Shown: positions 31,895 to 51,618, numbered from the stretch's first letter. The stretch is DNA of 64,000 nt from Synechococcus sp. (GCA_047285535.1 JBJBDC010000001.1:1216136-1280135), one strand, 5' to 3'. Program-made: numbers and translations. The notes: generated by a model not told the origin, from the letters alone.

Positions 31895-33265
31895 ATGAGT
31901 CCCGCTGCGACCAAATTGGCTCAGGCCACATCCAAACCAAGCCCTTCAATCATCATGCTGGCCGATGAGAAAGGTCAGCCCAAAGCGGTAAAAGCCAAAA
32001 CAAAATCAGCTTCGAAAGCCAAAACAACAAAGAAGGCAAGCGCTAAAACAAAAGCAAGCAGCACAAAAACAAAAGCAAGCAGCACAAAAACAAAAGCAAG
32101 CAGTACAAAAGCGAAAGCAAGCAGTACAAAAACAAGCAAAGCGAAAGCAACTTCTACCACCGCCAAGTTGGAAGCGTCAGCTGATCAACTCCTTGCAGCG
32201 ACTGACAAAACGACCGCAGTCGCAAAAATCAGCGATAGCGCAGCAACGTCAGCCACAGACGCCAAAGCAGAAGCCAAAGCCAAGGTTCTTGCAAGTATTA
32301 AAGTTGGGCCGAAAGGGGTTTACACCGAAGACTCCATTCGTGTTTACCTTCAGGAAATAGGAAGAATCCGCCTTCTGCGTCCAGACGAAGAAATTGAATT
32401 AGCTCGCAAAATTGCAGACCTGCTCCACCTCGAGGAACTGGCTGCACAGTTTGAAAGCGATAACGGCAAACTTCCTGTCACGAAGGAATGGGCTGCACTG
32501 GTGGAAATGCCAGTGATTCGCTTCCGACGAAGGCTGATGCTTGGTCGTCGCGCAAAAGAAAAAATGGTGCAATCCAATTTGCGCCTTGTGGTGTCGATTG
32601 CCAAAAAATATATGAATCGTGGCCTGAGCTTTCAGGACCTCATTCAGGAAGGCAGCCTGGGACTGATTCGAGCTGCTGAAAAATTCGACCACGAAAAGGG
32701 CTACAAGTTTTCGACTTATGCCACTTGGTGGATCCGTCAAGCGATTACCCGCGCCATTGCCGATCAATCCCGAACCATCCGACTACCGGTTCACCTCTAC
32801 GAGACCATTTCCAGGATCAAAAAAACCACCAAGGTGCTCAGCCAAGAATTCGGCCGTAAGCCTACAGAGGAAGAAATCGCAGAATCGATGGAAATGACCA
32901 TCGAAAAATTGCGATTCATTGCCAAGAGTGCCCAACTTCCCATCTCGCTTGAAACTCCCATTGGCAAAGAAGAAGATTCACGCCTAGGCGACTTCATCGA
33001 AGCCGATATCGAAAATCCAGAACAAGATGTTGCCAAAAATCTTCTCCGCGAAGATCTTGAAGGAGTTCTTGCTACGCTTAGCCCTCGCGAAAGAGATGTC
33101 CTACGGCTTCGCTACGGCCTCGACGATGGTCGCATGAAAACATTGGAAGAAATTGGACAAATCTTTGATGTAACCCGCGAGAGGATTCGTCAGATAGAAG
33201 CCAAAGCACTCCGGAAATTACGCCATCCAAACAGAAACGGAGTTCTCAAGGAATACATCAAGTAA
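31895..33265 (+). CDS. rpoD: Principal RNA polymerase sigma factor (RpoD/SigA)
   Basis: [44 protein letters not shown] and [19 protein letters not shown]. Confidence 0.98.
32045..32128 (+). repeat. 21-bp tandem repeat, 4 copies, in rpoD region 1.1
   Basis: aaaacaaaagcaagcagcaca twice, then ...cagtaca, then aaagcgaaagcaagcagtaca; encodes K(T/A)KASST four times. Confidence 0.92.
33121..33263 (+). repeat. Left copy of the 143-bp direct repeat (rpoD 3' end, putative attL)
   Basis: Aligns without gaps to 49850-49992 with 10 mismatches. Confidence 0.95.
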
Positions 33266-33448
33266 CCTGAGTATTACTGAGACCTCTGTCTCTAATAGGG
33301 TTTTTATTGAGCATTAAGATGTGTTATGGCCTGGTTTTTTGAAATCAGGGCCCCATTTTCTCAATCCTTAAAACTCACTCTTTTGATCATGCTTCTGAGC
33401 GTGCTGATCGGTACGTGATGCATGAGTAGCTCCAGGAACTGAGTACAT

Positions 33449-33473
33449 AGGCTCCACTTACGTGGGGCTTTTT
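33449..33473 (+). terminator. Probable intrinsic terminator
   Basis: aggctccac-ttac-gtggggctt hairpin (9 bp including G-U pairs) followed by ttt. Confidence 0.6.
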
Positions 33474-33956
33474 GATGAGTACCCATTCGGAGGATCAAGG
33501 ATTCGGAAGCACCGCTCCTCTTGAAGAGATGCAGGCGTGATAACAACTGATGCAAGCTGATTTGCAATGAATAGATCAAGCACTAGGTCTTCAGAAGAAT
33601 TTCCGCAAAAAAGGGGGTTCTCAAAGTCATCGACAGGCTTAGACCTTCACGCTTGTTCAGCAAGTTCTGCAAGAGCTACCCATTCTGGTGGAAGGGAACA
33701 CTGCAATCGCACAGGTTGCCTACTTTTGTAGGGAAGCGATTACCGGTGAAGAAGAGTAGTCGATCCCAATCGCGGCTCATCACCAGAGTTCGAGCCGCTG
33801 GCCTGGAACAGCAAAAGCATGTCGCCATGGGTAAAAAACCCTCCCCTGGGGCTCGAAATAAGAGTGTCGTAAACCATAGAAGCCCTCATCAAAGGAAGCG
33901 CGAAAAACCTAAAGAGAAGAAGAAATTTTCATTCAAACAAGACAGCAAAGTTTAGA

Positions 33957-35681
33957 GTGAATTTATTTGAAACTATGGAAATAAAATCATTCCTCGAAGG
34001 CAACCAAGACTTGGCAGAAGCATTGAGTGCTCTTCCCTTCATTGAAGAACTAGCCGAAACCGATTACGGCAGTATCTCGCTCAATAAATTTATCAACATC
34101 ATGGGTTCGAACGGATTTGAGGCTGAGAGTTTAAGAAGATCACTGCAGCAAGCCGTAGAATCTCTAATTGTAAATAACGAAACCCCACCAGAAGATCCCT
34201 TCAGCATTTCACTGGACGACTGGAAGCCATTAATTGGTGATGAGAGATCTAACGAAATAATCACAGCAATATCAAATTTGAATAAAGAAATTGACCTTGT
34301 AGCTGGTGGGACATCGTCCTCCAATCACAAAGCAGCTAGGGCGGTAGGAGCGACAGTAGTTGCAGCAGCCGGAGCTGCTACGCTTACATTCGCTGCAAAG
34401 AAATTGAAAGAGAACAAAAATAACATTGAGAAAGCCATCGAGATACAGGCCAAAATTGAGGCTGGCACTTTCGTTGAAGGCCGCGACATACCAGCAACAT
34501 GGACAAAAGATTGGCAGAACGCTAAAAAGGAAGTCGAAAGAAAGGCCAAAGATGCTGGAGTGTCACTGGAGGAGTATGAACGACGTGAATTTAGTGATGA
34601 ATTTTTCAGGGTGGGTGGACTGAAAGGCTTAGAGAAGCCTGTTATCAGTGCAATAGACAAAAATTTCCCCATTACAATCCTGCCGGAAGACTTAGCGAAG
34701 GCAAAAACAGCCATCAAGAAAGAACTGAAAACACAAGCCGATAATTTTGCAGAAACACGGTTTGGGATGGAATTCACCCTACATGGAGCAAAAGAAGAAA
34801 TAAAATCAATTGCCGATCAGATGATTGAAGAAAAGGTACTGACGCCAAGGATCTCGACAAGAAAGGTAGACGAATTAGCAACCAAAGCAACAGAAGCTGT
34901 ATTAGAATCATCAATAAAGACATTATACGAAAAAGATAAAGATCTAATAAAATTAATCAGCCCAGAAAACTTAAGAAGATTTGTCAAAGGCAAAATATCT
35001 GAAAGTGATTTAATTGAAAAAATAAAGACTAACAGCGCCTTTGCGAGGGCAAGTAAACGGGCAATACAATTCACAGAACAAGAGAAAGAAATGCTCTTGA
35101 AAGTTCCAACTGAATTCAAAAATAACATCCAAGGGATAAAAATAGACCTGAAAAAGTCAATGAAAAGCGCTTTAGACGATAAATTCAAAGAGACAATCAA
35201 CGAAAGAGCGGGGTTGGCGTTCAAGGAAGATTTTAATAAGGAAGATTTCAATCTTGAAACCTTAATGCCTAATTTAATAGACGATCATACTAAAATAAAG
35301 AAAATTTCCGCCAAGATCACGGCATTATCCGAGTCAGATATAATTAGCGATAAATTTGGAGGTGCAATAACCAAGGATATTGTTAAAGGCGCAGTGCAAG
35401 ATGTAAGAACAGAAGTCAGAAAAGAACTGAGAGACGTAATTGAAAAAGACTTAGTAAGCGCAGGGGAAATGCGTATGGAAAAAGAACTTGACATCGAAAC
35501 AGGAAAAGTTTCGGAAAAGATAGAAAAAGAATATATAGATAAATTTGAAACCCTTATAGATGATACAGCCAAAACGGATGTGGCCAAAGTAGCAAAAGCA
35601 TTTGAAAAAGATATTGCAAATCAACTTGTTAACGACCTTTCAGACTTTGGCGGTGGAAAGATAATAGATAAAATGGAGTAG
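33957..35681 (+). CDS. Large double-glycine-leader protein (574 aa), putative cargo of the adjacent exporter; start possibly ATG 33975
   Basis: EIDLVAGG at aa 111-118, then an Ala/Gly-rich hydrophobic helix and a long K/E-rich helical body. Confidence 0.75.
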   Translation: MNLFETMEIKSFLEGNQDLAEALSALPFIEELAETDYGSISLNKFINIMGSNGFEAESLRRSLQQAVESLIVNNETPPEDPFSISLDDWKPLIGDERSNEIITAISNLNKEIDLVAGGTSSSNHKAARAVGATVVAAAGAATLTFAAKKLKENKNNIEKAIEIQAKIEAGTFVEGRDIPATWTKDWQNAKKEVERKAKDAGVSLEEYERREFSDEFFRVGGLKGLEKPVISAIDKNFPITILPEDLAKAKTAIKKELKTQADNFAETRFGMEFTLHGAKEEIKSIADQMIEEKVLTPRISTRKVDELATKATEAVLESSIKTLYEKDKDLIKLISPENLRRFVKGKISESDLIEKIKTNSAFARASKRAIQFTEQEKEMLLKVPTEFKNNIQGIKIDLKKSMKSALDDKFKETINERAGLAFKEDFNKEDFNLETLMPNLIDDHTKIKKISAKITALSESDIISDKFGGAITKDIVKGAVQDVRTEVRKELRDVIEKDLVSAGEMRMEKELDIETGKVSEKIEKEYIDKFETLIDDTAKTDVAKVAKAFEKDIANQLVNDLSDFGGGKIIDKME

Positions 35682-35833
35682 GTCAAGAAAAAAAAGATAA
35701 GTTCCGACAATTAATTGTGAATATGAGCGCTTCAATAGTGTTATTTCTAAGCAGGTTGCTCATTAGCAAATTGAGCTGTCAGGTCGCTTCCTATTGGAGT
35801 GTCACGGACCAACCATGACCAAACAACTCATAC

Positions 35834-36569
35834 ATGCAAAATCCAATGCCCATCTCACTCACAAGAGTCATCTGAAATTTAGCTCTCATCTCCTGAAAGA
35901 CCACCGACCCTGGCTGAAATGGCTGCAGAAGCTGAGATCGTTCTGCGATGTACCTACAGTTGGCTGAACTGGCGTCACAACAACAGGCTGTGAAACCTGG
36001 AGCGCGTGCCTCCTGTACAGCCCAACAAACACCTGACACCAGGCATCATGAACCACATCGAAATGCAAAAACTGTACTGCTTTTGTAAAGCGAGAAAACG
36101 CAACTTGGAAAAAACAGCGTCGCTAATCTGAAGTGAGAAACGACCAAGGCTGTGTTGCCATCGAAAAGGCCAAACGACTGGCCTAGTCGGAGTGCTTCCC
36201 GAAGAGCAGCAGGGCACAGGGATCGGCTTGATGAGCCGTGCATGGGACTGATTTAACGACAAAGGTCTCGAATGCGATCAGATAATGAACGACAACAGCC
36301 CCAACTACATCACACGCAGAGTTGCCAAAGCTTGCAAGTCGCTGGGCCTTGAGCTCAGACGAACCACTCTGTACACACTGCGGAGCATCGGCAAAACTAA
36401 ACGTTTTGAAAAATCCTTGGTAAAGAGTGGAATTACGAATGTTCGTCAAGAACGCTGAGGAGCACATCCCCTGGCTGCCCTGGGATCTCTGAATCTATAA
36501 CCAGATCAGGGGGCAAACGGTCATCGAAACAATTCAGCTCACCAACGGTTCCATCAGCTGCTCTGCTAA
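35834..36569 (+). pseudogene. IS481-family transposase relic
   Basis: Frameshifted fragments: NAHLTHKSHLK...LAEMAAEAEIVLRCTYSWL (N-terminal HTH), MNHIEMQKL, and GLECDQIMNDNSPNYITRRVAKACKSLGLELRRTTLYTLRSIGKTKRF (rve core, compare TDNG...YTPRTNGKAERF). Confidence 0.85.
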
Positions 36570-36814
36570 TCAACAAGGGAAAAATCAAAGGCAAGTCACA
36601 ATGACAATGCCTTAAATGAATAGAAAGCATGTCAGCTGAAATTAAGTTGCGTCGAAATAAAATCGCAACCGATAAATGACTGGAAAAGACTACGAAGAAA
36701 AAACAAAATAGAGACCAATACATTCAACCAACCATCCCTCATAGACAAATAAAAAATTCATAAAAGCTTTGAGTCAAAACTATTGCGCAAGTCAAGAAAA
36801 ATATGGCCTCATGC

Positions 36815-36859
36815 TTGTTTTGTATATTTGATTCAAATCGAATCAAATATACAAAACAA
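36815..36859. repeat. Perfect 20-bp inverted repeat with a 5-nt spacer
   Basis: ttgttttgtatatttgattc-aaatc-gaatcaaatatacaaaacaa. Confidence 0.95.
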
Positions 36860-36950
36860 AGCAAGACGAGTCTCAAATTCATGAAGAGTTATTGCAGAAT
36901 TAAACCGGCTTAACGGTGGCTGCTAAAAATATAGATATCGATATTTCTCA

Positions 36951-37268
36951 ATGACAAGTTCTACAGCTTTGGACACAAAGGCTGACAGTGAAGGTAGCGA
37001 ACAGTTGTCTGAGAAATTTATTGAATGTCTACAAACTCAAGCTGGTGAGATTGCAGAAAAATTCCCAAACATTAACCCAATGGAGGCTCACGCCTGTGCC
37101 TTGATCTTTGTTGATACATTGGCCAAACTTCATGAGGCTGGACTCGAGGAGTCAGTTAAAGCTGGAGATGCAAGGCAAGCAGGATCTTGGACCAGAGACC
37201 TTACCATTTTTGAAACAGTCATATCACTCCTCAGAAACATCCAACCACTTGATATAGACGCAATATAA
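36951..37268 (+). CDS. Acidic helical hypothetical protein (105 aa)
   Basis: ATG-started ORF in an AT-rich region with protein-like composition. Confidence 0.7.
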   Translation: MTSSTALDTKADSEGSEQLSEKFIECLQTQAGEIAEKFPNINPMEAHACALIFVDTLAKLHEAGLEESVKAGDARQAGSWTRDLTIFETVISLLRNIQPLDIDAI

Positions 37269-37491
37269 TTGTTTAAAGGAGCTATAAAAAACATAATCTT
37301 GGAGATTCCAAGACAATGGAAAGATCATTTATGAATCAATATTCCAAGTCACATCTAGATTTAGCGATAAACAAATACGATCAAAAGAAAAAAATTGAAT
37401 CCTCTGCCTGAAAATACAGTTAGTAAAAAGGATTGCTAAACGAGAAGCCATCACAGAATCTTTGCCATCTAAGCATCTTTTTTTCTAAATT

Positions 37492-37517
37492 TATCCATAC
37501 CTAGAAAGGTATGGATA
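37492..37517. repeat. Perfect 11-bp inverted repeat upstream of the exporter operon
   Basis: tatccatacct-agaa-aggtatggata. Confidence 0.85.
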
Positions 37518-37845
37518 CAAGATCTAAACTGAACAAAACAATGTTCAAAGCGACACCACGTCTTTGAAAAGGGATAAAGAATTGAACAAAAAGGATATTG
37601 AATAAACACAAGTAACGTCAGGTCACGGTTTATTTGCTGTTAACGAATAGAAGCATCACCATGTTAGATATAAAATCATTGGAGGATCGAAGCGAGCAGA
37701 AAGCAAGTAGATCTAATTCATTGCACAGGGAGGAGCAATGGTCGCAATATAAGACAAACCAGCAAGCGTTAGGATATACATATATTTTATTTAAGAGCCT
37801 TGATTTGATGGAAAATAAACGTAAAATACAAAAAAATTAGAGCCT

Positions 37846-39051
37846 GTGAAAAACAAGCTGACAGAAGCAGCTGTCAAGAAACCCTTTCTCATAACGACAG
37901 TCTGCTTGTCAGCCTTAGGAGCTACGACACTAATTTGGTCAATATTTGGAAACCTTAAATTAGAATCAACAGGCATCGGAGTTATTTTGAGGGGCAAACA
38001 TTTTGTCACCATTTCAGCGCAAACAAGCGGAGTAATCAATAAGCAATACTTTAAATTAAACGATAAAGTACTTAAAGGTGAAAAAATTCTGTCTATGGCT
38101 AGCGAAATTAATAAAATCAGATTAGAGCAATCTCTTAAAACAATAAGCGAAACTCAGCCTTTAATTAAGCAAGCAAATAAAGCCGGAGAAGCAGATCTAA
38201 AAATTGCATCTGATTCGATAATCCGAGCGAGAAAGAATTTAGAGGCATCAATGCCAAAACTACAAGAACTTATTAAAGATCAAGAAATTGCATACAACGG
38301 ATTATTGAAGTTGTACTCAAATGGGCAGGTTGGAACACAAGAACTGGCAAATTCATTTTCGACACTATCAAGGCTCAAGCAACAAAGACAAGAATTAAGA
38401 CGACAGCTCCAAAATATAGAATCCAACTACAATCAACTACTGCAACAAAATGCTCAAAATGAAATACAATTAAGTTCAGAGATGATTGCCAATCAATCAC
38501 TGAAAGCTCAATTATTGCAGAAAATTAAACTCGCAAAAAATATACGAGCGCCGTTATCTGGGACAATCGTAAGCTACAACGTACCTGTTGGTGGATTTGC
38601 ACAAGAGGGAGATCCTTTAATAACGCTGAGCCCATCAGAAGGGCCACTGCGGGCAATTATCCTGGTTGGCGCAAAAGATTATGGAAGAGTCAAAGTAGGC
38701 AATAAAGCTTTAATCTCTCCAAGTGCTAGCCCGGCAATTAGATTTGGATATATTGAAGGTAGAGTATTTTCAAAGTCAGAAGCACCTGCAACAAGTGCAG
38801 AGCTAATAAAAGCATTTGGCTCTCAAGAGATAGCTCAAACATTAATCAATAGTTTTTCAAGGCAAGGAAGAGCTGATCTGCCTTATCTTGTTGATATTAT
38901 CATTGATCAAAAGAATAATGAGCCAATTTGGACCCTTGGGAAGCAACCACCGTGGGGTGTCAGTTTAGGAAGTGAGGCATCTGTGAGAATAGTATCAGAT
39001 GAAACGAGTCCTATCAGTTTAGTAATACCCTTTATACGAGGAGGGATATGA
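37846..39051 (+). CDS. HlyD-family adaptor, NHLM bacteriocin-system type
   Basis: N-terminal TM (..IWSIFGNL), ISAQTSG and IRAPLSGTI lipoyl halves around a coiled coil, RFGYIEGRV, and C-terminal W..GKQPP...PISLVIP. Confidence 0.88.
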   Translation: MKNKLTEAAVKKPFLITTVCLSALGATTLIWSIFGNLKLESTGIGVILRGKHFVTISAQTSGVINKQYFKLNDKVLKGEKILSMASEINKIRLEQSLKTISETQPLIKQANKAGEADLKIASDSIIRARKNLEASMPKLQELIKDQEIAYNGLLKLYSNGQVGTQELANSFSTLSRLKQQRQELRRQLQNIESNYNQLLQQNAQNEIQLSSEMIANQSLKAQLLQKIKLAKNIRAPLSGTIVSYNVPVGGFAQEGDPLITLSPSEGPLRAIILVGAKDYGRVKVGNKALISPSASPAIRFGYIEGRVFSKSEAPATSAELIKAFGSQEIAQTLINSFSRQGRADLPYLVDIIIDQKNNEPIWTLGKQPPWGVSLGSEASVRIVSDETSPISLVIPFIRGGI

Positions 39052-41186
39052 ATATAAATAACGCATTAGATTCTCTCCTTCGAAATGCATCGAGACAACC
39101 TCCATTTAATATTATTTTTCAATCAGACGAAACAGAATGCGGATTAGCATCATTAGTAATGGTGCTCAATATTTTTGGCAAAGATATCACGATCGAAAAA
39201 ATACGCAATGATTATGGCTCTACGAGAGGTGGGATGTCTATCGGTGAATTACGAAAACTTTCCATACTCTACGGTCTATTAGCATTGCCAGCAAAAGGAA
39301 ATCTGATTAAAAATGATAAATGCCCTGTAATTATATTTGCACACGGGGATCATTTTGCTGTTCTATGGGAAACCAAGAACAATCAATACTTCATAGCCGA
39401 TCCAGCTGATGGCAACCTTGTGTTGTCTCAATCAGAATTTGATGATTATTACTCTGGCATTTATATTGAGTTCAAAACAACTAGTAAATTCCAGATTACA
39501 GAAGCCAAAAATATTTCAAGAGAGCAAGATTCAACGCCGTCGCTGTCTACACTTTTATATAACAACAAAACCATAAACAGGTTAATAATACTATTTGCGT
39601 TTATTGCAGCATTTTTCACATTATTCAATGCAGCAATTCAAGATGTGTTCATGACCTATGTAGTAGAAGAAGGCCTTACTCTTTGGACAAAAGGCATGAT
39701 ATCTATAACAATAATAGTATCTATTGGCTTAGCATTGGCAACCTTCATGATGCAGATTGCTGCGCAAAGACAACTTCAAAACTCACTTCAGGGATGGAAT
39801 ATTGAACTTTTTAGTTCACTGTTTAGGGCTCCATATCAGTTTTTCATCAATAAAACATCAGGATTAATTGTCTCAAGATTCAATCAACTTGAAGAATCAT
39901 TTACCGGTTATCAATCATCAGTCATTGCGGCTTTAACAGGAGCCCTAAATCTTCTTATATTTATAGTCGCCGTAACAGTAGTCAGTATTCCTCTTGCATT
40001 TATTTCGGTAATAGGAATTGCAGGTTTTATGGCGGTTGGCTATAGGTTCCTCGGAATTAATATACAAAATAATTACCGATTAAGGGAAGCAGAATGTAAA
40101 GTATCTTCTTCTGAATTCAAACTTATACAAGGAAGAAATCAAATAACATTAGAAAACGGTGAGCAATCAATACTCAGAGAATTATCTTCTGGCTATTCAG
40201 CCTTGGGCACATCTCAACTCTCAATACAAACAACAGAGATTAGAAGTGAATTCATGCTTGGCATGATTGATCAATTACTTAACACTTTCCTTCTTATTAT
40301 ATCCTCTATTTTAATCGTCAAGGGCAATCTGACCACAGGAACTTATGCCGCTATCAATGTAATTATTGGAACAGCACTTGAGCCTATTCGGTCACTGGCT
40401 TCCCTAGTAGAGCAACTTCAGAATTCAAGGTTAATTTATAAATCTGCTCTTGACCTTTATCAACCAGAATCAAATGAAGTGATCACCACAAACAATGAAT
40501 TGAATATGGATAACCCTATGCTTAGCCTTTACAAAGTAACATTCAAGTATTCACTTTATGCAGAACCAATCTTTGAAAATATAAGTATCAGAATTGCTCA
40601 TCCTAAAAAGGAATGTATGATTGTAAGGTTATCCGGATCAAGCGGATCTGGGAAAAGTTCATTACTCAACGTGATTTCTGGATTGGTAAAACCGAACACG
40701 GGTTTGGTCAAAGTCTTTGGGATCAACACATCAAACACATCTCCTCAAAAAATCAGGCATATTATTCAATATATCGATAGAAATGTAATCATAGTAAAAG
40801 GATCAGTGGAAATGAACACTAGATTGGGAACAAGTGCAAGTCATAGTGAATACGAAGAGGCTGTGGAGATGTTGGGGCTAAGTTCACAAACAATCTTTAG
40901 CCAACAAAGCAAGCGCTACCTTGCTGATCAATCATCTATTAGCGTAGGTCAATCAATCATGATTGCCCTCGTCCGATCAGTTCTGATCAAACCCAAGTTA
41001 CTCCTAGTTGATGAAGCACTAGTCAGTATTCCTGAACAACTTCATGTCGGAATAATACGTGGGCTGAGAACACTGGGAATAAGCGCAATCATTGTTCAGC
41101 ATGGTAATGACGGCTTTATTTCAAAACTTGCCACTATCGATCTTGATAGGTTTAAAAATGAATCCGGGGAGGCTCTGGAGAAATGA
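39048..41186 (+). CDS. Peptidase-containing ABC transporter (C39 domain + TMD + NBD)
   Basis: QSDETECGLASL (Cys), DHFAVL (His), IADPADG (Asp), TM helices, Walker A GSSGSGKS and Walker B LLLVDE. Confidence 0.92.
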   Translation: MNINNALDSLLRNASRQPPFNIIFQSDETECGLASLVMVLNIFGKDITIEKIRNDYGSTRGGMSIGELRKLSILYGLLALPAKGNLIKNDKCPVIIFAHGDHFAVLWETKNNQYFIADPADGNLVLSQSEFDDYYSGIYIEFKTTSKFQITEAKNISREQDSTPSLSTLLYNNKTINRLIILFAFIAAFFTLFNAAIQDVFMTYVVEEGLTLWTKGMISITIIVSIGLALATFMMQIAAQRQLQNSLQGWNIELFSSLFRAPYQFFINKTSGLIVSRFNQLEESFTGYQSSVIAALTGALNLLIFIVAVTVVSIPLAFISVIGIAGFMAVGYRFLGINIQNNYRLREAECKVSSSEFKLIQGRNQITLENGEQSILRELSSGYSALGTSQLSIQTTEIRSEFMLGMIDQLLNTFLLIISSILIVKGNLTTGTYAAINVIIGTALEPIRSLASLVEQLQNSRLIYKSALDLYQPESNEVITTNNELNMDNPMLSLYKVTFKYSLYAEPIFENISIRIAHPKKECMIVRLSGSSGSGKSSLLNVISGLVKPNTGLVKVFGINTSNTSPQKIRHIIQYIDRNVIIVKGSVEMNTRLGTSASHSEYEEAVEMLGLSSQTIFSQQSKRYLADQSSISVGQSIMIALVRSVLIKPKLLLVDEALVSIPEQLHVGIIRGLRTLGISAIIVQHGNDGFISKLATIDLDRFKNESGEALEK

Positions 41187-43180
41187 TTGCTTATTCAGCA
41201 TCTGAGTATGCTCGTTATCTTCTTGAAAAAAAGAATGGCGAATTGTTGAGCGACCAAAATATCAAGACCAACTTAAGTGATCTTGCCGACAATGAATCGT
41301 TAACTCCAAGACAATTAGTTGAGACACTTTCATTTTATTTGCAAGTTAATGAATTACCCTACAAACACGAGACTGCAGTTTATTTGTCGGGATTAGGTAA
41401 AACAGTGTTTGCGGTATTAGAGACTGCAATTATAAGTCTGGATGATCTCGCAACAGCCAAAAACAACGATGAAATGAAGGATAGCAGTCTTTATGTTTTG
41501 AGCTCTAGTGTTCCGCAGAAAAAGCTAAGTAAGCTTTTGTTCCTCCAAGCGTTCATGAAAAGTCGTTGGAGTATGATACTAACACTTTTAATACTCGGTC
41601 TTCCAGCAGTAATTGCGCCTGCAATTGCAGAATTGCTGCAACAACCATTGTTTGATTCATTAATTCCCGAAGGCAGAATTCCCGCTATATTATTAATAGG
41701 AATAGCATCTATTCTGTTGCAAGCTAGTGGGCAAATCATAAGCAGTGTAAGCAGTCTGCTTTCTACTTACTTTACAAATAATATAGAGCTCGAGTCTAAG
41801 CTTGCAACTGCTAAAAGATTTTTAGATGCCAAACAAGCCTCTATTCCTCAGAAAGATATTGGCTCGTGGCGAATTACATTTAGTGTTGCAAGCTCATTTA
41901 TTGAATCAATTCAGTCGATATTCATTTCAATTCCAATTGCGATTATTTCGCTGATCGCGAATCTGCTAGTCGTTGGTGCATTTACAGATCTTCGTGCCAT
42001 CTGGCATTTATTCCTACTGATGCTTTTGCCGACTGTAATTAGTTCCATCATATCATATATCAGCTCCAACTACTATATAAAAATAATGGCCCAACAATCA
42101 TCCATAGAAACAACAATCTACGAAGTGGTGAAGGATATAAGGGAAATTTGGATGCTCGGATGTGAATCTATTTATCTAAATAGATTCTTTAGGTCTCGAA
42201 AAGCGATGTCAATTAACATGCTCTCAGCAGGTTTACTACAGTCACTATCTTCATCGTTCAATAATTTCTTTCAAGGGATTCTATACGCTTACATCTTTTT
42301 TGAGTTTTATCGCTCAACAGAATCGTCTTCATCGGAGCTATCTGTTGGTGCGCTCCTAGTGATGTATTTTGCGGTTGGTACCATTGGTGGTTCACTAGCA
42401 TCAATCTCCTCTGATCTCGTTGATCTAGCTCAAAGCCTCCCTACCTACTGGATGCCAAATGCTATTAGGGATATTGATGCCTTTGAAAGAAAGTCGTACT
42501 CAAAGGAAAAATGCCCAAGTAAAATCATACTCTCTGATGCAACTTTCTTGTACGGTGACATTCGAGCACCATTTCCGGAACCTATTAATATTAAGTTAGA
42601 ATCGGGTTTCAATTATGCATTAGTAGGACCATCTGGTTCAGGAAAAACAACTTTACTGAATATCATTGCGGGTCAACTATCTTTAACAGAGGGTAAGATG
42701 GAGATCTTTGATCGATTCAACCAAAAGGTAGATATATCACTGTCTGATTGTAATATTCTATATCTTGGGCAAAATACTAGTTTATATGGCTCGATTTTAC
42801 GGGATATTCTTGATCCAACAAAGTCGTTCACAGATAAGCAACTGTATAGTGCCATTTCAAAACTTAATCTAGATGAAATCATGGAATCACTTCCACTTAA
42901 ATTAAAAACACCAATCAATGAATTCAACAGAGATCTCTCTCTCGGACAGCTTCAACGCTTTAAACTTGCAAGGGCACTTCTTACTGATTATGACATTATT
43001 ATGAGCGACGAAATAACATGTCATCTTCCAGAAGATCTGCATTTACAGGCCATTCAGTTATTAAACAATAGATCAAGAATTCACATTTCCTCATTACATA
43101 GACTCTCTGCTGTTTCTCTCTTTGATAAGTGTATTACTTTGAATGGTAATGGAGAAGTTAAGGAGGCCGTTTCAACATGA
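41183..43180 (+). CDS. ABC transporter TMD+NBD without peptidase (second NHLM-type subunit)
   Basis: TM helices, GPSGSGKTT, LSLGQLQRFKLARALL, IMSDEIT and LHRL; 4-bp overlaps with both neighbours. Confidence 0.9.
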   Translation: MIAYSASEYARYLLEKKNGELLSDQNIKTNLSDLADNESLTPRQLVETLSFYLQVNELPYKHETAVYLSGLGKTVFAVLETAIISLDDLATAKNNDEMKDSSLYVLSSSVPQKKLSKLLFLQAFMKSRWSMILTLLILGLPAVIAPAIAELLQQPLFDSLIPEGRIPAILLIGIASILLQASGQIISSVSSLLSTYFTNNIELESKLATAKRFLDAKQASIPQKDIGSWRITFSVASSFIESIQSIFISIPIAIISLIANLLVVGAFTDLRAIWHLFLLMLLPTVISSIISYISSNYYIKIMAQQSSIETTIYEVVKDIREIWMLGCESIYLNRFFRSRKAMSINMLSAGLLQSLSSSFNNFFQGILYAYIFFEFYRSTESSSSELSVGALLVMYFAVGTIGGSLASISSDLVDLAQSLPTYWMPNAIRDIDAFERKSYSKEKCPSKIILSDATFLYGDIRAPFPEPINIKLESGFNYALVGPSGSGKTTLLNIIAGQLSLTEGKMEIFDRFNQKVDISLSDCNILYLGQNTSLYGSILRDILDPTKSFTDKQLYSAISKLNLDEIMESLPLKLKTPINEFNRDLSLGQLQRFKLARALLTDYDIIMSDEITCHLPEDLHLQAIQLLNNRSRIHISSLHRLSAVSLFDKCITLNGNGEVKEAVST

Positions 43181-44832
43181 GATTATTTTCATTAAATACC
43201 GGAGCTAAACTCTTCTTTTTAATAATTACCTCTTTTTTCAATCCTTCCTCTTATTCCTCTGCCAGCGAAATCAATGCTAAGTACAGCAATCATAGTTTTT
43301 CAGAAAAAGCTTGCAAGGATGAAAGGATTAAGGCAAATTTATTGCTAGCAGGAAGATTGCCTACATTCTACAATTGTTCAAACAGAATTGCTTTTAATTC
43401 AACTCCCACAAAATCGAAGTCTTCTGCAAAAGAGTTTTTTAATCTTGAGCCACTTTCCAACCCGAGTATTAAATCATTAGAGTTTGACTATAAAGCATCC
43501 GTTTATAAGGTTAAGTCAGCATATGGTGCATGGTGGCCAAATGTTTCAATGTCAAATAGTTCTATATTGTTTACAGATATACTTTCTAGGCAAAATTATG
43601 ATGCTCCAACCTCATCAACGTCGTCTCCTTCGAGTCGGGGAACGAGTTTTAATCCTATCGATCGCTCTAACCGAAATAACACAAGTAACTCTGATCAACT
43701 AACCGGTTTCAATACTACTTACGCTAACTATATTCAAGCGTATCCAGTTATCACTGTTGAATGGAATTTTTTAGATCCAACTCGTTATCCAAGCATAGCT
43801 GCCGCAAAGAAGCAAAAACAATTAGCATTGCTCGAGCTCGAGAAAACAAAATCAAATCTTCAAAGTAAAATAAGTCAACTCTCAGTTGAGTATCGTTATT
43901 CTCTTTATACGATTGGAGAGTTAATTCAAATTATGAGTATTCAAAAAGATATTATTTCACTTACAAAGTCTCTAGTTGACCTTAAAGAGTTGCCAAGAAT
44001 TCAACAAATTAAAGCACTTCGTGAGCAAGCTCAGTCCCAGAATCGTCTGAACCAAGCCCAAATTAGACTAGCTAATATTAAATCTGAGATTGCATCTATC
44101 ATTCTCCCTCAAATTCAACATTTAAAGCTCGACACCGTAACGGTAGATGATGTCATTAATGATTATTTACTTAAAGAAAACTACACTGAAAAATCATTGA
44201 AAGAATGGAGTCGTGACTCTGATACGACATATCAATTGGCATTAGAAAACTCTTCTAAAGTTAAAGAACTAACATTACAAGCAGGCATTTCTAAAGACTC
44301 TGCCAACCAAGAATGGGGATCTATACTGCCAACTATTGGATTTCTTGGTTATATTACATATCAGTATACAGCTGGAAGCCAAAATTATGCACCTCCTGAG
44401 CAGCCTAATGGTGCAGCGTCGGCGGTGCTAACAAATTATTTTGGACTTTCAGTGTCATGGAATCTCTTTGATGGATATGCCACTCGGCACCAGGCAAGAG
44501 CGTATGAAATGAAAGAACAATCACTATTAAAGAAAATAGAACAAGAAGTCATCACTCTGCGACCATCGACACAGCTACTACTGACCAAACTTAATTTCTC
44601 AAAAAAGCAAATTGATCTAGCAATCAAAGATTCGTCTGCTGCAAAAATAATCTCTTCAGATGTTGAGGCCAGATCTCAGTATGGTTTAGGCAGTCAATAC
44701 GATTATTTTAGTGCCCTTATTGATTATCATCAATCAAAGATCTATCTTCTCGAAGCATTATCTGAATATAGTCGAATATATCTTCAATTGTCACGTTTGA
44801 CAAGTTCAAACACGTCTGGTTCGTCAATTTAA
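43177..44832 (+). CDS. TolC-family outer-membrane efflux protein
   Basis: Signal peptide, twofold repeat (AYGAWWPNVS...VEWNFLD and EWGSILPTIG...GLSVSWNLFDG), and RSQYGLGSQYD C-terminal helices. Confidence 0.88.
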   Translation: MRLFSLNTGAKLFFLIITSFFNPSSYSSASEINAKYSNHSFSEKACKDERIKANLLLAGRLPTFYNCSNRIAFNSTPTKSKSSAKEFFNLEPLSNPSIKSLEFDYKASVYKVKSAYGAWWPNVSMSNSSILFTDILSRQNYDAPTSSTSSPSSRGTSFNPIDRSNRNNTSNSDQLTGFNTTYANYIQAYPVITVEWNFLDPTRYPSIAAAKKQKQLALLELEKTKSNLQSKISQLSVEYRYSLYTIGELIQIMSIQKDIISLTKSLVDLKELPRIQQIKALREQAQSQNRLNQAQIRLANIKSEIASIILPQIQHLKLDTVTVDDVINDYLLKENYTEKSLKEWSRDSDTTYQLALENSSKVKELTLQAGISKDSANQEWGSILPTIGFLGYITYQYTAGSQNYAPPEQPNGAASAVLTNYFGLSVSWNLFDGYATRHQARAYEMKEQSLLKKIEQEVITLRPSTQLLLTKLNFSKKQIDLAIKDSSAAKIISSDVEARSQYGLGSQYDYFSALIDYHQSKIYLLEALSEYSRIYLQLSRLTSSNTSGSSI

Positions 44833-44924
44833 TCCCATAAATATACAAATATTTTCAAATAATTGTATACGTGCATCTAATTGTTGGTTGTTGTGTTTGA
44901 GAAATTGAGAAACGAAACAAGCCC

Positions 44925-45107
44925 CTATCGTGCTTCATCTAAAATAAAAAACAGACAACATGGTATCAATGAAATACAAATTGCCAGTACTAAGTACTGA
45001 TTTATTGATTGATTTAGCAAAGACTTAAGCAAAAGAACTGCGAACAATGGGTGAATTATTAATAAGCACAAGATCACTATCGTTAATTCATAAATCCCCA
45101 GAGCCAT
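44925..45107 (-). CDS. Possible 60-aa two-TM membrane protein
   Basis: From ATG 45107: MALGIYELTIVILCLLIIHPLFAVLLLKSLLNQSINQYLVLAICISLIPCCLFFILDEAR. It could be an AT-rich shadow ORF. Confidence 0.35.
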   Translation of the reverse strand: MALGIYELTIVILCLLIIHPLFAVLLLKSLLNQSINQYLVLAICISLIPCCLFFILDEAR

Positions 45108-45206
45108 AAAATGCTGCAACCAAATATTAAGAATTAAGTGGCAAGATGATTGGGCGGCACCATTGGGCCATAAGATCATTAAAATGAGGAGTAAATAGTA
45201 GGAATA

Positions 45207-48200
45207 GTGAGCATGGGAGATTTCAATTTATTTTACCAAGCTCTTCAATCTTTAGATAACGACATCACCATTTTAGGCACAAGCGAGGATTTAGTTGTCG
45301 CTGATTGGCTCAAAACAGAGGGATATGATATTACCTACATTCTTGACTGCCTTAAAAAAATTAAAAGAAGCAACGGTGAAACTAACTCTAAAACACTCAC
45401 CGTTGAAATACTTGGTGACAAGAGAAAACGTGAACTGCTGCTAAGAAGCTATAGAGATTCCATTGATAGTACTGCCGGTGGAATGTTGACTTCTGTAGAA
45501 AGAGTAAGAGAAGCATCTATTAAAGGTCTAAAGAATCATCGCGACTTGCTGGAGAAAGCCCAAAGTGAAATTGAAAAAGGAAAAATAGCAAAGGAGATGG
45601 TTCCTACAGTTGAAGGTGGAATTGAGCCAGCATACATCAATAAAATATCCTCAATAAAAGAACTAGTAAATTCTCGGCCTGTTCATCTATATTGGAAAAA
45701 CTATCAGGAAATGCGAGATATCGGTTGGCATGCTTATGCAAAAACACGGTTAATTAGCTTCATAAAATATGCTGTTAGGAAACAATATGCGAATTGGAAA
45801 GCTGCTTATATTGCTGCTCTGGGATCATCAGCAAATAGGGGGAATTGGTCTGGTGGATATATGAACGGCACTAAACAAGATGGTTCTGGTTACATATCCT
45901 ATGGAAGAAATGGAGATCATTACACATCATATTCGATATACGGAACTTGGGATGACCCTTTTCAAAAAGGTGGTTCATTTAATATCAATATTTATGGTAT
46001 GAATAGCCAATGGAGGCTAGAAGGAAATAAGCATAATACTGCAATTACGGCTTCTATTAATGAAAGTAATGGCAAAATTACCTATACATCCTACATAGAG
46101 CCTGATAATGCTGGTCTTATTGCATTACCAAAATACACAGGAGAGGTGACATCTCGACAAATTCTAGAGAAATCAAAACAATTCCAAACTGACGAGAACA
46201 TTGTTCACTCTTATGAGAATGCAACTCTAGGCTCATCTTTTGCAGCTGTCGTAAGAAAGCATTATCCAAATTTCAATATCAATGAGAAAGTCAAAGATTT
46301 TCAAAAAATCTTGGCTTATTCAGCCATTGCCTATGTTGTCAAAAGAACCTACATTGCTGAAGGAAAGATTAATAGCCAATTTATTAATCAAGCGCTTAAG
46401 CGATTGACTGAGACTGGCACGTTACATGATGCATTCGCTTTAATTAACTATCAGGCGCGCATGCAAAAATTACATCTTGATCATATACTGAGTGCCACAA
46501 ATCTCAAACACAAAGCCAAAGCCTCGCGTGTTTGGGCCTCTGAAGAAGTTGCTCTTGATAGAGTTGCGAGAAACTCAATTCTCAATAGTAGCCGAGAGTA
46601 CCAGCGATTAATTAATGATGGACTTAGTAATAAAATGGCCGAAAGAGCCGCCAACCTGACATTTTTCTCCGATTTGTTGGTCTTTGACAGCTTTATATAT
46701 AGTGCTCCTACAAAAGACATTAAACTAGATTTTACGAAAAAGGACGCAACTATTGCTAATTACTCTCGCATCGCATTACCCGTTATTATTACCCAAGAAG
46801 CAAAGATCAGCAAGACGATTCTGCGACAAGAGAAAACGTTTAAATACATTCCTAAGTACACTAATTTAGTTCTAAGCTTCGAGAAACTAAAGTATGAGGC
46901 GTTTAGGGCGATATCAGTTGGCTCTTACGACTATTTCAAGCAGTACCTGGGTTTTCATCCGATTCATCGTTCGCTCAGGTTCATGAAAAATTCAGTTATT
47001 TTACCGACAGAAAAATGGATTGAAAGTTGGGGAAATAGTGCCTTGTGGACACAAATAACAACTGATGCCTTTTCAACTGTTAATTTTGTAGGGTTTTCAT
47101 TAACACGAGCAATTGTTCACTTACCTAAGCACATTTATGAAGATACTAAAAAGCTAGGTGAGCAGCTCGTTCATTTATTTAGTGGTGGTGATACTTGGGC
47201 TGGAATTGGAGGGGGCATATGGCGAGATATTAAAGGTCCTGTCAAAACCATTGAATTATTGGGTGAAAATGCCCTACTTGTTTTCGCGAGCTCCTTTGAT
47301 CCGCTATTCTATAAAACAAAGTTTGCAAAATCAATTATAGGCAAAGATAAAAACTTTGGGCAACTTATTGCAGATGCATGGCACTACGAATGGAACAAAC
47401 AGCGAATAAAATTAGCGCTTACTTTGCACAAGATCAATGCCCCGATAAGAAAGGAACTAAGTGAAATCACGAATGGTAAAATACCGAATCCAAGCGCATC
47501 ATTTTTTAGTAACCATGAAAATCTTAATGCCAAAAAAAATCAATTAACTCTGAAACTTTTAATCTCTTTCAGGTCCGGAATAACGAGCAAGTTGCAAAAT
47601 CATGCTGACGCAATTAACACTGCAATAACGATTGCTCAAGCCAATAAGTTTAAGACGACAAAAGATCTCCTTGTGCTTTCACAAGGCGGAAAAGTAAACA
47701 TTAATGGAAAAACAATTAGCGGCATGGAAATCAATGATGCACTCCAGTCATTAATTGCGAATATGGCTGACAAATATATTGCTTCAAAAGATTATACAAA
47801 TAAGCAAGAAAAGACTTTTGTTATCAATAATCTGGCCACGACAGAATTTAGAGATGGATTTCAAGCATGGACTCAGCGACAATTGGCAATATTTAAAAAC
47901 GAAATGAAGATGTATCAATACATAAATCAACAAAGTACTCGCTTTGAACAATTAGCTTTCAAGATCTCTATAGCCAACAAAATCAATCGGGGAATTAAAG
48001 ATGAAGGTTCTTCCTTGAAGTATCAGGTAGGTCATTTATGGCATCAAGGAAGAGCCAATACATTCTTTTTCAAGGCGTTTGATAAGCCCTTGCAGCATTC
48101 ATTCAATGCTTTATCTACTGGTAAGAAAACCAATGAAGCAAATAAGCAACTGAATCATTTTCAAAGAAATCATAAGCCCGGTGAAAAGCTATTTGCTGAC

Positions 48201-49265
48201 ATCCTTCTAACAGAAACAGCAGATAGAGTTATGCGGAATATTGGAAATATTCACTATAAAATTGAAACTGGAGCATATGCTATTGGTACTTCTAAATATC
48301 AGAAGGACTTGCCTTTCGCTAAAAAAGAGCTGCTTCTTTCGATGCGCTTGCATCAGAACACAGCTCAAGAGATTGAAGAATGGAGCAAGAGGATTAAAAT
48401 CACAAATCGACTTGGAAAGATCACACTGGATCAAGCTAGTCTTTCTAAACTTAAGAATGCAACATTCAACGGGCTACTGACAAAAGCCAAACAAAACATT
48501 CATCTTGTCACTGCCGTTGATTCAAGCTTAGTAAAAATAGCCAATAAAGAGTCATCTATTCTCAATAAACCGATCACAGTGCAAGACGTAATTACAGGGA
48601 CGGAGAATTGGTGGGATCGCGCAGTAAGTAAAGGATACTTTTATCAGCATTGGAAAACCGTTGTGACGACTCGCTCATCTCATAATGCGGCACTTGCAGC
48701 GTTATTGAATGATGTTGAAATTCTTCAAGGTGGTGGAAGCATGACATTTGGACAATTTATTAACTCTCTTCCTCAAAATAAGAATTGGAAGCTTTCACTC
48801 GCTCCTCATGCAATTCCTTCAAGGGGTCCATCTTCAATTGCTATTAGCAACTTAAATATCAAAGCAGGAGTCCTTACACCTAAAAAAGTAAATCAAGTGG
48901 CAAAACAAAAGGTGAAAGTTCCTATTCTTTTGTTCAAAAACCGTATAAAATTTGCGAGAAACATATGGAAAAAAATCACTGGCAGTGGCAAAAAAGATGA
49001 TCTTCTCCAGCAAATCGAACACGCTGAAAAGAAGACTATTGTCAATGCAGATGAAAGACGCGTCGCCAAAGAGCTAGGAGAAGACGAGCTTAAGGAATTG
49101 GATAATCTTCTTGTTGAGGATGCGATCAAAGTTGAAAGTGAAGCGGAATTATCAATTGAAATTGAAGAATCCAACGCACTGAGTTCAGTTGACGAACTTA
49201 TCGATACAACTTTAACTGACGCAATAGACACAACAGAGGAAACTATTGCAGAAGCTATAGTTTGA
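45207..49265 (+). CDS. Giant double-glycine-leader protein (1352 aa), putative exported cargo or toxin; start possibly ATG 45213
   Basis: 4-kb open frame with an AGGA element upstream; SIDSTAGG at aa 85-92; leader resembles that of the 574-aa protein. Confidence 0.78.
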   Translation: MSMGDFNLFYQALQSLDNDITILGTSEDLVVADWLKTEGYDITYILDCLKKIKRSNGETNSKTLTVEILGDKRKRELLLRSYRDSIDSTAGGMLTSVERVREASIKGLKNHRDLLEKAQSEIEKGKIAKEMVPTVEGGIEPAYINKISSIKELVNSRPVHLYWKNYQEMRDIGWHAYAKTRLISFIKYAVRKQYANWKAAYIAALGSSANRGNWSGGYMNGTKQDGSGYISYGRNGDHYTSYSIYGTWDDPFQKGGSFNINIYGMNSQWRLEGNKHNTAITASINESNGKITYTSYIEPDNAGLIALPKYTGEVTSRQILEKSKQFQTDENIVHSYENATLGSSFAAVVRKHYPNFNINEKVKDFQKILAYSAIAYVVKRTYIAEGKINSQFINQALKRLTETGTLHDAFALINYQARMQKLHLDHILSATNLKHKAKASRVWASEEVALDRVARNSILNSSREYQRLINDGLSNKMAERAANLTFFSDLLVFDSFIYSAPTKDIKLDFTKKDATIANYSRIALPVIITQEAKISKTILRQEKTFKYIPKYTNLVLSFEKLKYEAFRAISVGSYDYFKQYLGFHPIHRSLRFMKNSVILPTEKWIESWGNSALWTQITTDAFSTVNFVGFSLTRAIVHLPKHIYEDTKKLGEQLVHLFSGGDTWAGIGGGIWRDIKGPVKTIELLGENALLVFASSFDPLFYKTKFAKSIIGKDKNFGQLIADAWHYEWNKQRIKLALTLHKINAPIRKELSEITNGKIPNPSASFFSNHENLNAKKNQLTLKLLISFRSGITSKLQNHADAINTAITIAQANKFKTTKDLLVLSQGGKVNINGKTISGMEINDALQSLIANMADKYIASKDYTNKQEKTFVINNLATTEFRDGFQAWTQRQLAIFKNEMKMYQYINQQSTRFEQLAFKISIANKINRGIKDEGSSLKYQVGHLWHQGRANTFFFKAFDKPLQHSFNALSTGKKTNEANKQLNHFQRNHKPGEKLFADILLTETADRVMRNIGNIHYKIETGAYAIGTSKYQKDLPFAKKELLLSMRLHQNTAQEIEEWSKRIKITNRLGKITLDQASLSKLKNATFNGLLTKAKQNIHLVTAVDSSLVKIANKESSILNKPITVQDVITGTENWWDRAVSKGYFYQHWKTVVTTRSSHNAALAALLNDVEILQGGGSMTFGQFINSLPQNKNWKLSLAPHAIPSRGPSSIAISNLNIKAGVLTPKKVNQVAKQKVKVPILLFKNRIKFARNIWKKITGSGKKDDLLQQIEHAEKKTIVNADERRVAKELGEDELKELDNLLVEDAIKVESEAELSIEIEESNALSSVDELIDTTLTDAIDTTEETIAEAIV

Positions 49266-49440
49266 AAAAGTGGTTATCCCTCCACTCAGTTTCGAACAAA
49301 GCACGGGAGTCGAAGCTGCTAGGCACTCATTCTGACGGTTAAAAGCCGAAGTACAAAATCCTCTCTACTCGGATCCAAACCAGGGTTTCATCAGCTGGTT
49401 GATATTCAGGTTGCTCCCAATCGGTCGCAGCCTCAAGATT

Positions 49441-49563
49441 TTTTTAATTTGATGCATGTCACACCAATGGTTGGTCATAAGCATGATCTCGCGACTCAAC
49501 CGGTCTTAACTTGATCAGCGTAGAGATCTGTTCGTAAACATATAGTCCAGATCATGCGGTTTT
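49441..49563 (-). pseudogene. Possible eroded tyrosine integrase C-terminus
   Basis: Translation KPHDLDYMFTNR...REIMLMTNHWCDMHQ (with 2 stops) echoes the spacing of PYDLRHAWAVR...MMGHSVAIH; it lies next to the right island boundary. Confidence 0.3.
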
Positions 49564-49849
49564 CAACTCCCACCCAAATCCTGCAGAAATGTTCAGTGAT
49601 GGATGAGAAATAGTTCTTACTCATCACCTGTATAGAAACCACCAAGACATGAAATATGTTCAATGACTGAATAAAGCGAGGAGCAACGCCTGATGCTCGC
49701 CTACGGGCTAGGTGATGATGGAACTGGGCTGGCCGCCAGCCATTTCAAGTGGTTGGCATCGCTTCAATTTGGCTTTATCGAACTGGACTGTGCTTTAATT
49801 CATGACACCTCTATTGATATCAACAGCCAGCTCACGCAAGCCACATCGC

Positions 49850-49992
49850 CGGCGATGGACGCATGAAAACATTGGAAGAAAGTAGAGCAATCTTTGTTGT
49901 AACCCGCGAGAGGATTCGTCAGATAGAAGCCAAAGCACTCCGGAAATTAAGCCATCCCAACAGAAACGGAGTTCTCAAGGAATGCATCAAGT
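49850..49992 (+). repeat. Right copy of the rpoD 3' end (putative attR, sigma region 4 relic)
   Basis: 133/143 identical to 33121-33263; translates as [47 protein letters not shown]. Confidence 0.95.
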
Positions 49993-50022
49993 CAAAAGCC
50001 AAGCTTGAGTTAAAAGTTCTCA

Positions 50023-50050
50023 CCCCCTCCTGTCTTTGACAAGTGGGGGG
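50023..50050 (+). terminator. Decayed GC-rich hairpin after the displaced rpoD end
   Basis: ccccctcctgtc-ttt-gacaagtggggg with 2 mismatches in the stem and no clear U tract. Confidence 0.4.
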
Positions 50051-50928: not shown

Positions 50929-50996
50929 TCAAAAAATTTCGACCAAATCCAGATTTAGATCTCAATACTTATCGCGATATCCTTAAAAGTATCGAG

Positions 50997-51542: not shown

Positions 51543-51618
51543 CAGCCAGGCTCAAGGGACAAGCACATGACAGGGGGGGCAACGACTGCGTAATCTTGAA
51601 AACTGAAGTCTCACTACC

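Follow-up and report, generated by a model that had tools for sequence, protein, structure and literature searches.

A horizontally acquired island very probably inserted behind the principal sigma factor gene rpoD of a marine Synechococcus, with displacement of the original gene end to its far side

It is tRNA and tmRNA genes that are thought to seed the flexible islands of marine picocyanobacteria. In the available text of the preprint that describes them, the tycheposons and tRNA islands of Prochlorococcus and Synechococcus are AT-rich and have one complete and one partial copy of their target at their ends, with six tRNA genes and the tmRNA gene as sites, repeats of about 40 nt, and a tyrosine recombinase together with replication genes (10.1101/2020.12.28.424599). 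Insertion at the 3' end of an essential-type protein gene is described, in the part of the source at hand, for e14 (and phage 21) at icd of E. coli, where the gene is completed from the element side and a pseudogene, icdC, is left at the far end (PMC13626634). The element e14 carries phage genes and a working integrase, and excises on SOS induction. For Rhs, contact-dependent inhibition (CDI) and type VI secretion system (T6SS) effector-immunity arrays, the accessible part of the source describes a conserved upstream anchor that receives a new gene end while the old end is orphaned downstream with no integrase, the displaced ends being variable toxin tips of the same gene and useful cargo (PMC5361080). 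In this study, we analyzed a 64-kb stretch of a marine Synechococcus sp. (JBJBDC010000001.1:1216136-1280135; hereafter the window), in which an AT-rich island directly follows rpoD, the gene of the principal sigma factor, and is itself followed by a second, degraded copy of the end of that gene. An earlier reading of the same DNA, which we call the original prediction, had proposed an integrative element that used rpoD as its target.

The locus resembles each of these systems in part. Direct repeats of the rpoD end stand at both ends of the island, as in the integrase-type arrangement of e14 at icd, but the island differs from e14 in its target, in its secretion-system cargo and in that no integrase was found in it. 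In contrast to the tycheposons, it has a 143-nt repeat derived from a protein gene, no recombinase among its searched reading frames, and no tRNA or tmRNA gene anywhere in the 64 kb. The original prediction had named tRNA and tmRNA genes as the usual picocyanobacterial targets, and the available text of the tycheposon preprint indeed lists only such sites (10.1101/2020.12.28.424599). Unlike in Rhs, CDI and T6SS arrays, the displaced end is a housekeeping sequence that does not vary, and the cargo has no relation to the anchor gene. A full-text search of the literature outside the subscription journals turned up no paper in which rpoD is named as attachment site or as anchor of an island in these organisms. 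Events of this kind are known, and what appears to be new is the rpoD target together with the setting.

The last 143 nt of rpoD before the stop codon recur behind the island in the same orientation and without gaps, with 10 mismatches (93% identity; Table 1). Eight of the mismatched bases sit in seven residue-changing codons and the remaining two are synonymous, and the stop codon just beyond the repeat is TAA in the proximal copy and TCA in the distal copy. The same figures (143 bp, 10 mismatches, 8 of them non-synonymous) had been given in the original prediction and were recovered by our alignment. Apart from a 21-nt array within rpoD, no other long repeat occurs in the 64 kb; the second-longest direct repeat with two copies has 30 nt at 80% identity. 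The gene is intact: Pfam sigma-70 regions 1.2, 2, 3 and 4 were all found in its product, and residues 217-456 are 100% identical to those of one relative (L037). The 21-nt array (32018-32143) consists of five or six tandem units that encode a K/A/S/T-rich, KTKASST-like stretch in the N-terminal part of the protein, and length variation of RpoD among relatives is found in the N-terminus.

Table 1. Coordinates of the features of the rpoD locus, counted from the first base of the window
Feature	Coordinates	Strand	Basis or remark
rpoD, principal sigma factor, intact, 456 aa	31895-33265	+	NCBIfam NF005643 RpoD equivalog, 728 bits vs cut-off 500
Proximal repeat copy, last 143 nt of rpoD before the stop, region 4.2	33121-33263	+	island DNA adjoins its 3' side
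Inserted island (as interpreted), 16,584 bp	33266-49849		GC mostly 0.31-0.44
Hairpin with T-rich tail	33328-33352	+	fold of 33260-33365
574-aa protein, likely start 33975	33957-35681	+	alignment of 6 homologues; no family
Decayed IS481-family DDE transposase pseudogene	35830-36525	+	in-frame stops, frameshifts; PHROG transposase match, E 0.0013
HlyD-type membrane-fusion protein	37846-39051	+	Pfam HlyD_3, HlyD_D23; NHLM_micro_HlyD 102 bits vs cut-off 156
ABC exporter with N-terminal C39 double-glycine peptidase	39048-41186	+	Pfam Peptidase_C39, ABC_membrane, ABC_tran; NHLM_micro_ABC1 244 bits vs 853
Second ABC exporter subunit, no peptidase domain	41183-43180	+	Pfam ABC_membrane, ABC_tran; NHLM_micro_ABC2 141 bits vs 709
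TolC-like outer-membrane efflux protein	43177-44832	+	Pfam OEP, E 9e-34
1352-aa protein, acidic C-terminus	45207-49265	+	2 homologues besides itself (73%, 32% identity)
Distal repeat copy, apparently the displaced, decaying original rpoD 3' end	49850-49992	+	stop lost, TCA at 49993-49995
Apparent ancestral rpoD downstream region with decayed terminator hairpin	49993-50571	+	matched by DNA beyond the rpoD stop of L001-L004
Conserved right flank: orf118 (+), DUF6561 (-, 50997-51542), hemC (+, 51619-52578)	50572-52578		Pfam; synteny across 68 loci

Related loci were collected by a HemC search with one genome per species, and the best 80 of the 521 HemC relatives, from marine Synechococcus and Prochlorococcus, were compared with the window; 68 of these hold both the rpoD end and hemC, and the other 12 stop short of rpoD. 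The closest relatives (L001-L004) have HemC proteins 92-93% identical to that of the window and DNA about 80% identical. The gene order priA(-)-rpoD(+)-[orf118]-[DUF6561(-)]-hemC(+) is kept in 68 of 68 loci. According to the original prediction, relatives with an empty site should exist, island-free relatives should lack a second rpoD fragment and the island genes should not be core, and the comparison agreed with this. In L001-L004 the rpoD stop lies 381-1085 bp from orf118 with a single gene end between the flanks, most of the 68 loci are empty as well, and a bare duplicated rpoD end without an insert was seen in none of the 68. The island DNA had no blastn, tblastn or tblastx match in the 80 loci, and six island proteins were likewise absent by tblastn (0 of 80). 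The GC content drops from about 0.54 to 0.36-0.38 between the copies. Taken per 1 kb, it lies at 0.46-0.57 before the 33-kb mark, falls to 0.35-0.44 over 34001-49000 and then climbs back, which, along with the lack of a match in relatives, bears out the description of the DNA between the copies as AT-rich accessory content. Island DNA extends from the first base after the proximal stop through the last base before the distal copy, and both junctions are unique sequence. Read together, the composition, the synteny and the repeat suggest that a horizontally acquired AT-rich island was very probably inserted exactly at the end of rpoD and displaced the gene end.

The same data bear on the possibility that the rpoD-end duplication is an older local segmental duplication, between the copies of which accessory DNA built up by separate insertions. 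The island is a mosaic in GC content (about 0.5 at 33400-33900 and 35800-36500, 0.31-0.40 elsewhere) and holds the remnant of an insertion sequence (IS), and its 574-aa gene diverges from homologues on other contigs far more than the exporter gene does, all of which would agree with a stepwise build-up. However, with no relative showing the bare duplication, and with the island abutting the proximal stop and the first base of the distal copy exactly, we consider this explanation very unlikely.

Comparison with 12 relatives showed which of the two copies has changed. The distal copy alone deviates from all 12 at eight of the ten mismatches and at the stop codon, and all eight lie in residue-changing codons, so that the decaying copy is the distal one, as had been predicted; at the synonymous site 33229 the proximal copy is the odd one out, and at 33130 the direction of change is ambiguous. 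The blastn alignment of the window rpoD to L001-L004 ends at 33264-33266, and that of the distal copy to the rpoD ends of the same relatives extends 15-17 nt beyond the stop. When the loci were read side by side, L003 and L004 were found to share an opening block, a terminator hairpin and a GTCATCGATAC block with the DNA 3' of the distal copy, and nothing alike was seen in relatives for the DNA 3' of the proximal copy. In the downstream region of the distal copy, 49993-50009 was matched by blastn, the hairpin and the GTCATCGATAC block by eye, and 50321-50412 matches L003 and L004 by blastn. The hairpin at about 50021-50050 is partly retained in its stem when folded and has lost its T-run, compared to a perfect 9-bp stem followed by TTTTT at the homologous position of L003; a decayed hairpin had been noted at this place in the original prediction. 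Since the DNA behind the distal copy matches the downstream region of rpoD in relatives, including the terminator, the distal copy is, to judge from these alignments, the displaced original end of rpoD, now lying with its terminator 16.7 kb downstream.

Due to the loss of the stop codon, a 58-aa open reading frame (ORF; 49863-50039) starts at the Met of GRMKTLEE in the displaced fragment, and no promoter-like site was found ahead of it. Read as the ORF 49818-50036, the fragment scores 26.6 bits against Pfam Sigma70_r4 (cut-off 24.1). A local alignment scan for a third rpoD fragment in the island gave nothing above shuffled controls, and an AYGLGDDG look-alike near 49700 was rejected as a piece of rpoD because it gave no BLASTP alignment to RpoD.

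With regard to the age of the change, the two copies have 17 states in common in which they deviate from L001. Along the final 999 nt of rpoD, alignment with L001-L004 shows no break in identity at the repeat; identity of the last block (0.84-0.86 overall, 0.54-0.68 at third positions) is like that of the rest of the gene. Because no divergence break occurs along rpoD, the copies could have been identical when duplicated, and because both carry the synonymous states of the lineage itself, a previously diverged element-borne attachment site (attP) is not needed. All differences between the copies can, on this comparison, post-date the duplication of identical or near-identical sequence. The change amounts to about 6% in the free copy and one or two synonymous changes in the working copy, which would correspond to about one fifth of the distance to the L001 lineage. 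The mismatches are somewhat bunched, with five within 16 nt (P 0.056) and seven of the ten in the first 48 nt (P 0.02).

A mis-join or chimeric contig as the source of the whole arrangement is hardly credible. Nothing specific points to such an artefact beyond the fact that repeats and GC shifts are where assemblies break. The copies differ at 10 of 143 positions and so would not collapse, the junctions are unique, the displaced copy decays in an orderly way and carries the ancestral flank, and island proteins are present on other large contigs.

Directly behind the proximal copy, the hairpin with a T-rich tail could possibly be a replacement terminator for rpoD; its z-score is weak (-1.27) and it was missed by the terminator scan. 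As the insertion also replaced the terminator of an essential gene, rpoD transcripts may read into the secretion cluster.

The original prediction had further taken region 4 of rpoD as the chromosomal attachment site (attB) of a site-specific integrase, and this part of it was not established. Searches for a tyrosine or serine recombinase, intact or as a remnant, were negative for 18 ORFs (Pfam, with NCBIfam on the long ORFs), for 32 small stop-to-stop ORFs of the island (Pfam, E up to 1), and for 12 + 14 island ORFs compared with PHROGs, the 14 being stop-to-stop ORFs of unassigned stretches; no integrase was found in 58 ORFs from inserts at 17 other loci. Domains of a replication module (primase or helicase) with a tyrosine recombinase were equally absent from the island in Pfam, NCBIfam and PHROGs searches, and four unassigned parts of the island, compared by tblastx with the window and the loci, had no meaningful match. 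The stretch 36252-36455, which at first sight resembles a tyrosine recombinase box, proved on searching to be part of an IS481-type DDE transposase, and the 574-aa protein was rejected as a large serine recombinase, having no family match and showing a conserved leader with a variable body instead. The dead IS481-family transposase is the only mobile-element gene found in the island, and IS481-type transposases make target duplications of a few bases, not 143. The phage and plasmid collections gave no match to the island (megablast for the whole, blastn for the left part, tblastn for the IS fragment), nor was a picocyanobacterial rpoD end found in phage or plasmid records, where the only matches were to generic rpoD of unrelated bacteria.

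A self-search of the 68 loci with the last 150 nt of each rpoD gave one convincing further case of a duplicated gene end, in Prochlorococcus MIT 0707 (L030). The original prediction had proposed searching for duplicated rpoD ends next to integrases; one more such end was thus obtained, but it came with no integrase (none in 12 ORFs, searched with NCBIfam only). The repeat of L030 is 79 nt long with one mismatch, lies 4.9 kb downstream, and reaches 93% identity over 94 nt; within the 79 nt lie the final 33 nt of rpoD, its stop codon and the hairpin of the terminator. The insert between the copies (4519-9497) consists of nine tandem units of about 500 bp, each encoding a small peptide of the 84-aa class with a classic double-glycine leader and having its own terminator hairpin. 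These peptides have weak NCBIfam matches to leader families of ribosomally synthesized and post-translationally modified peptides (RiPPs) and bacteriocins, and a motif scan for double-glycine leaders in the inserts at this locus found them only in the L030 array. The array may have been amplified recently, as is suggested by 100% identity of several units over 300 nt. Three related Prochlorococcus loci have 320-361 bp at the insert site, and in the comparison meant to tell the ancestral side of the insert, short, weak matches were obtained on both sides. The boundaries of the repeats differ, running from -143 to the stop in the window and from -33 to +46/+61 in L030; the two overlap in the last 33 nt of rpoD, of which the last 18 (AAGGAATACATCAAGTAA) are identical. 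A 26-nt rpoD-end match in L036 (E 0.018) is probably due to chance.

The spacer between rpoD and hemC is a general hotspot, with variable content in many Synechococcus. Inserts of at least 1 kb occur in 14 of the 68 loci, four of them having more than 4 kb, and most have a GC content of 0.41-0.50 against 0.51-0.60 in the flanks. Across 24 spacer and upstream intervals there are 162 ORFs of at least 60 aa, and the longer ones, 58 in 17 loci, are those that were scanned; among their products are DUF6790, TPR, FMN oxidoreductase, Coq4-like, DUF3104, PsaE and YrhK-like proteins.

On these data, we regard it as possible, though only tentatively so, that region 4.2 at the 3' end of rpoD was the attB of an integrative element, which would have brought both a tyrosine or serine integrase and a surrogate gene end, the integrase having been lost later so that the element is now fixed. 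The architecture is the same as that of e14 between icd and the icdC pseudogene, as given in the available part of its description (PMC13626634). A second event of the kind at this gene end (Prochlorococcus MIT 0707, repeat of 79-94 nt), the overlap in the last 33 nt with 18 in common, the 5' skew of the mismatches, other mobile-DNA debris in the form of the IS481 remnant, bacteriocin-type cargo in both islands, and a window repeat that ends at the stop are all consistent with this reading. Against it, neither an integrase nor a remnant was found in the island, in L030 or in the other inserts scanned, the two copies are of one and the same lineage and nothing in them points to a foreign attP, and neither phage and plasmid records nor the literature searched provided a parallel. 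The invariant C-terminal KEYIK* of the protein accounts for the 18 shared nt just as well.

We slightly favor, while giving it no better than an even chance of being right, a homology-driven insertion from a donor of the same lineage over site-specific integration. By either route, the last 143 nt or more of rpoD very probably were the pairing sequence, and the incoming DNA brought its own rpoD end, which now completes the fully conserved RpoD. The resident end was moved 16.7 kb downstream and has there lost its stop, seven conserved residues and the T-run of its terminator. On the favored view, host homologous recombination would have done the pairing with DNA of a donor that already carried the island behind rpoD. 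A single crossover may have taken place between the chromosome and a circularized donor fragment bearing the rpoD end and the island, or homology-facilitated illegitimate recombination may have acted, with rpoD as anchor and an illegitimate join 143 nt before the recipient's stop. Displacement of gene ends by the last of these is a proposed model in the accessible part of the source (PMC5361080). At the putative illegitimate junction, the 11 bases to the left of 49850 agree with the proximal side at 6 positions. The high conservation of rpoD and hemC would make the spacer between them a general recombination hotspot.

Several observations argue for homology-driven insertion: no integrase was found among the scanned ORFs of the hotspot although the similarly decayed IS is still recognizable; the incoming copy has the lineage signature of the resident, with its 17 shared states and no divergence break; the repeat boundaries differ between the window and L030; and, the spacer being a general hotspot, only one of the 14 other loci with inserts has a repeat. 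The window thus combines a conserved anchor upstream, an orphaned end downstream, no recombinase, and a copy of the kind a same-lineage donor would supply.

Several points weigh on the other side. Homology-facilitated illegitimate recombination is rare, as stated in the available part of the source (PMC5361080), and a single crossover requires a circular donor molecule. The illegitimate process is known mostly for giving deletions. A second, independent island flanked by rpoD ends occurs in another genus (L030), both islands being related to bacteriocins, and exactly such recurrence at one gene end would be expected of a dedicated site-specific system. The repeat in the window has its boundary exactly at the stop codon; this argument for site-specificity is weakened because homology between lineages ends at the stop in every comparison. 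The 5' skew of the mismatches could come from an old attP arm, and the integrase gene could simply have been deleted. Finally, Prochlorococcus is described as being without competence genes in the available text of the preprint (10.1101/2020.12.28.424599). A further, unlikely reading would be a picocyanobacterial family of bacteriocin or secretion islands that uses the rpoD end as attachment site with a recombinase acting in trans or encoded by the host, of which the islands of the window and L030 would be two members.

In either case, the locus would be an island seeded at the gene end of the principal sigma factor that left a displaced gene end behind, with a second case in another genus. 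If the insertion was site-specific, the rpoD end would be a new attachment site of a new element family, and a protein-coding seed would stand beside the tRNA and tmRNA genes. If homology-driven insertion is correct, conserved housekeeping genes would be anchors that trap foreign DNA without an integrase, and such anchoring would help to explain islands that lack mobility genes.

The genes of the island are dominated by an export system, in which the ends of the HlyD, C39-ABC (ATP-binding cassette), second ABC and TolC-like genes overlap. Its best NCBIfam matches are to the NHLP/Nif11-type bacteriocin export clusters (TIGR03794, TIGR03796, TIGR03797), with which it shares the HlyD adaptor, the C39-ABC protein and a second ABC protein, but its scores are far below the curated cut-offs and a TolC-like gene is added. 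The candidate substrates also differ from the short peptides of NHLP/Nif11 clusters, being 574 and 1352 aa long with N-termini that match no leader family. When the N-termini of the two proteins were searched for leaders (112 aa of the 574-aa protein, 131 aa of the 1352-aa protein), no family was matched at E up to 10, and a suspected likeness to Nif11 leaders was not borne out.

The 574-aa protein has five homologues in a large protein set and matched no family in Pfam, NCBIfam or PHROGs. Its N-terminus is near-invariant over about 112 residues, up to an invariant LVAGG, and the C-terminal part diverges strongly; the predicted structure is all-helical at low confidence (predicted local distance difference test score, pLDDT, 57). 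The protein may be regarded as a candidate double-glycine-leader substrate of the exporter. Two other large contigs, of 1.21 and 2.53 Mb, encode C39-ABC proteins with 99-100% identity to that of the window, compared to only 72% and 54% for the 574-aa homologues on contigs of these same lengths, which would fit a stable exporter paired with a fast-changing cargo in a polymorphic-toxin-like pattern. This cargo, in which a near-identical exporter goes with a fast-diverging 574-aa protein with a conserved leader, may be of interest for research on marine microbial competition. The 1352-aa protein, for which no Pfam, NCBIfam or PHROGs family and no usable ESM Atlas match was found, is possibly an exported cargo as well. 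Two small ORFs without a family match were also noted, one at 36951-37268 (105 aa, +) and one at 44925-45179 (84 aa, -), the latter placed between the TolC-like and 1352-aa genes.

For the IS remnant, a 68-aa transposase piece has 34 representative matches, the longer of which carry rve, rve_3 and LZ_Tnp_IS481, so that the IS481 domains were seen in the homologues and not in the remnant itself. A tblastn search with protein P0012 aligned its residues 113-262 to the remnant (E 1e-27) with stops and frame changes within the alignment, and other pieces of the remnant align to its N-terminus. A 57-aa protein, P0011, is 91% identical to a fragment of the remnant, and the same dead IS is thus present in at least one other sequence.

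Among the inserts of other genomes, the large ones of L010 (1806-9393), L008 (5171-9400) and L017 (3370-9453) encode TPR, OYE-type FMN oxidoreductase, Coq4-like, DUF6790 and DUF3104 proteins, with neither an rpoD repeat nor a recombinase in any of the three. In L036, a low-GC insert of 2.2 kb in the spacer between rpoD and DUF6561 holds psaE at 7883-8107 (Pfam PsaE, E 1.5e-24), and a near-equal insert in L037 has an ORF of the same size at 1422-1646. One further locus (L015), on a contig titled as a Salipiger bermudensis metagenome-assembled genome (MAG), has a HemC 85% identical to that of the window and Synechococcus-type DUF6561 and YkuD neighbors; the contig seems to be of picocyanobacterial origin and to have been binned with an alphaproteobacterium.

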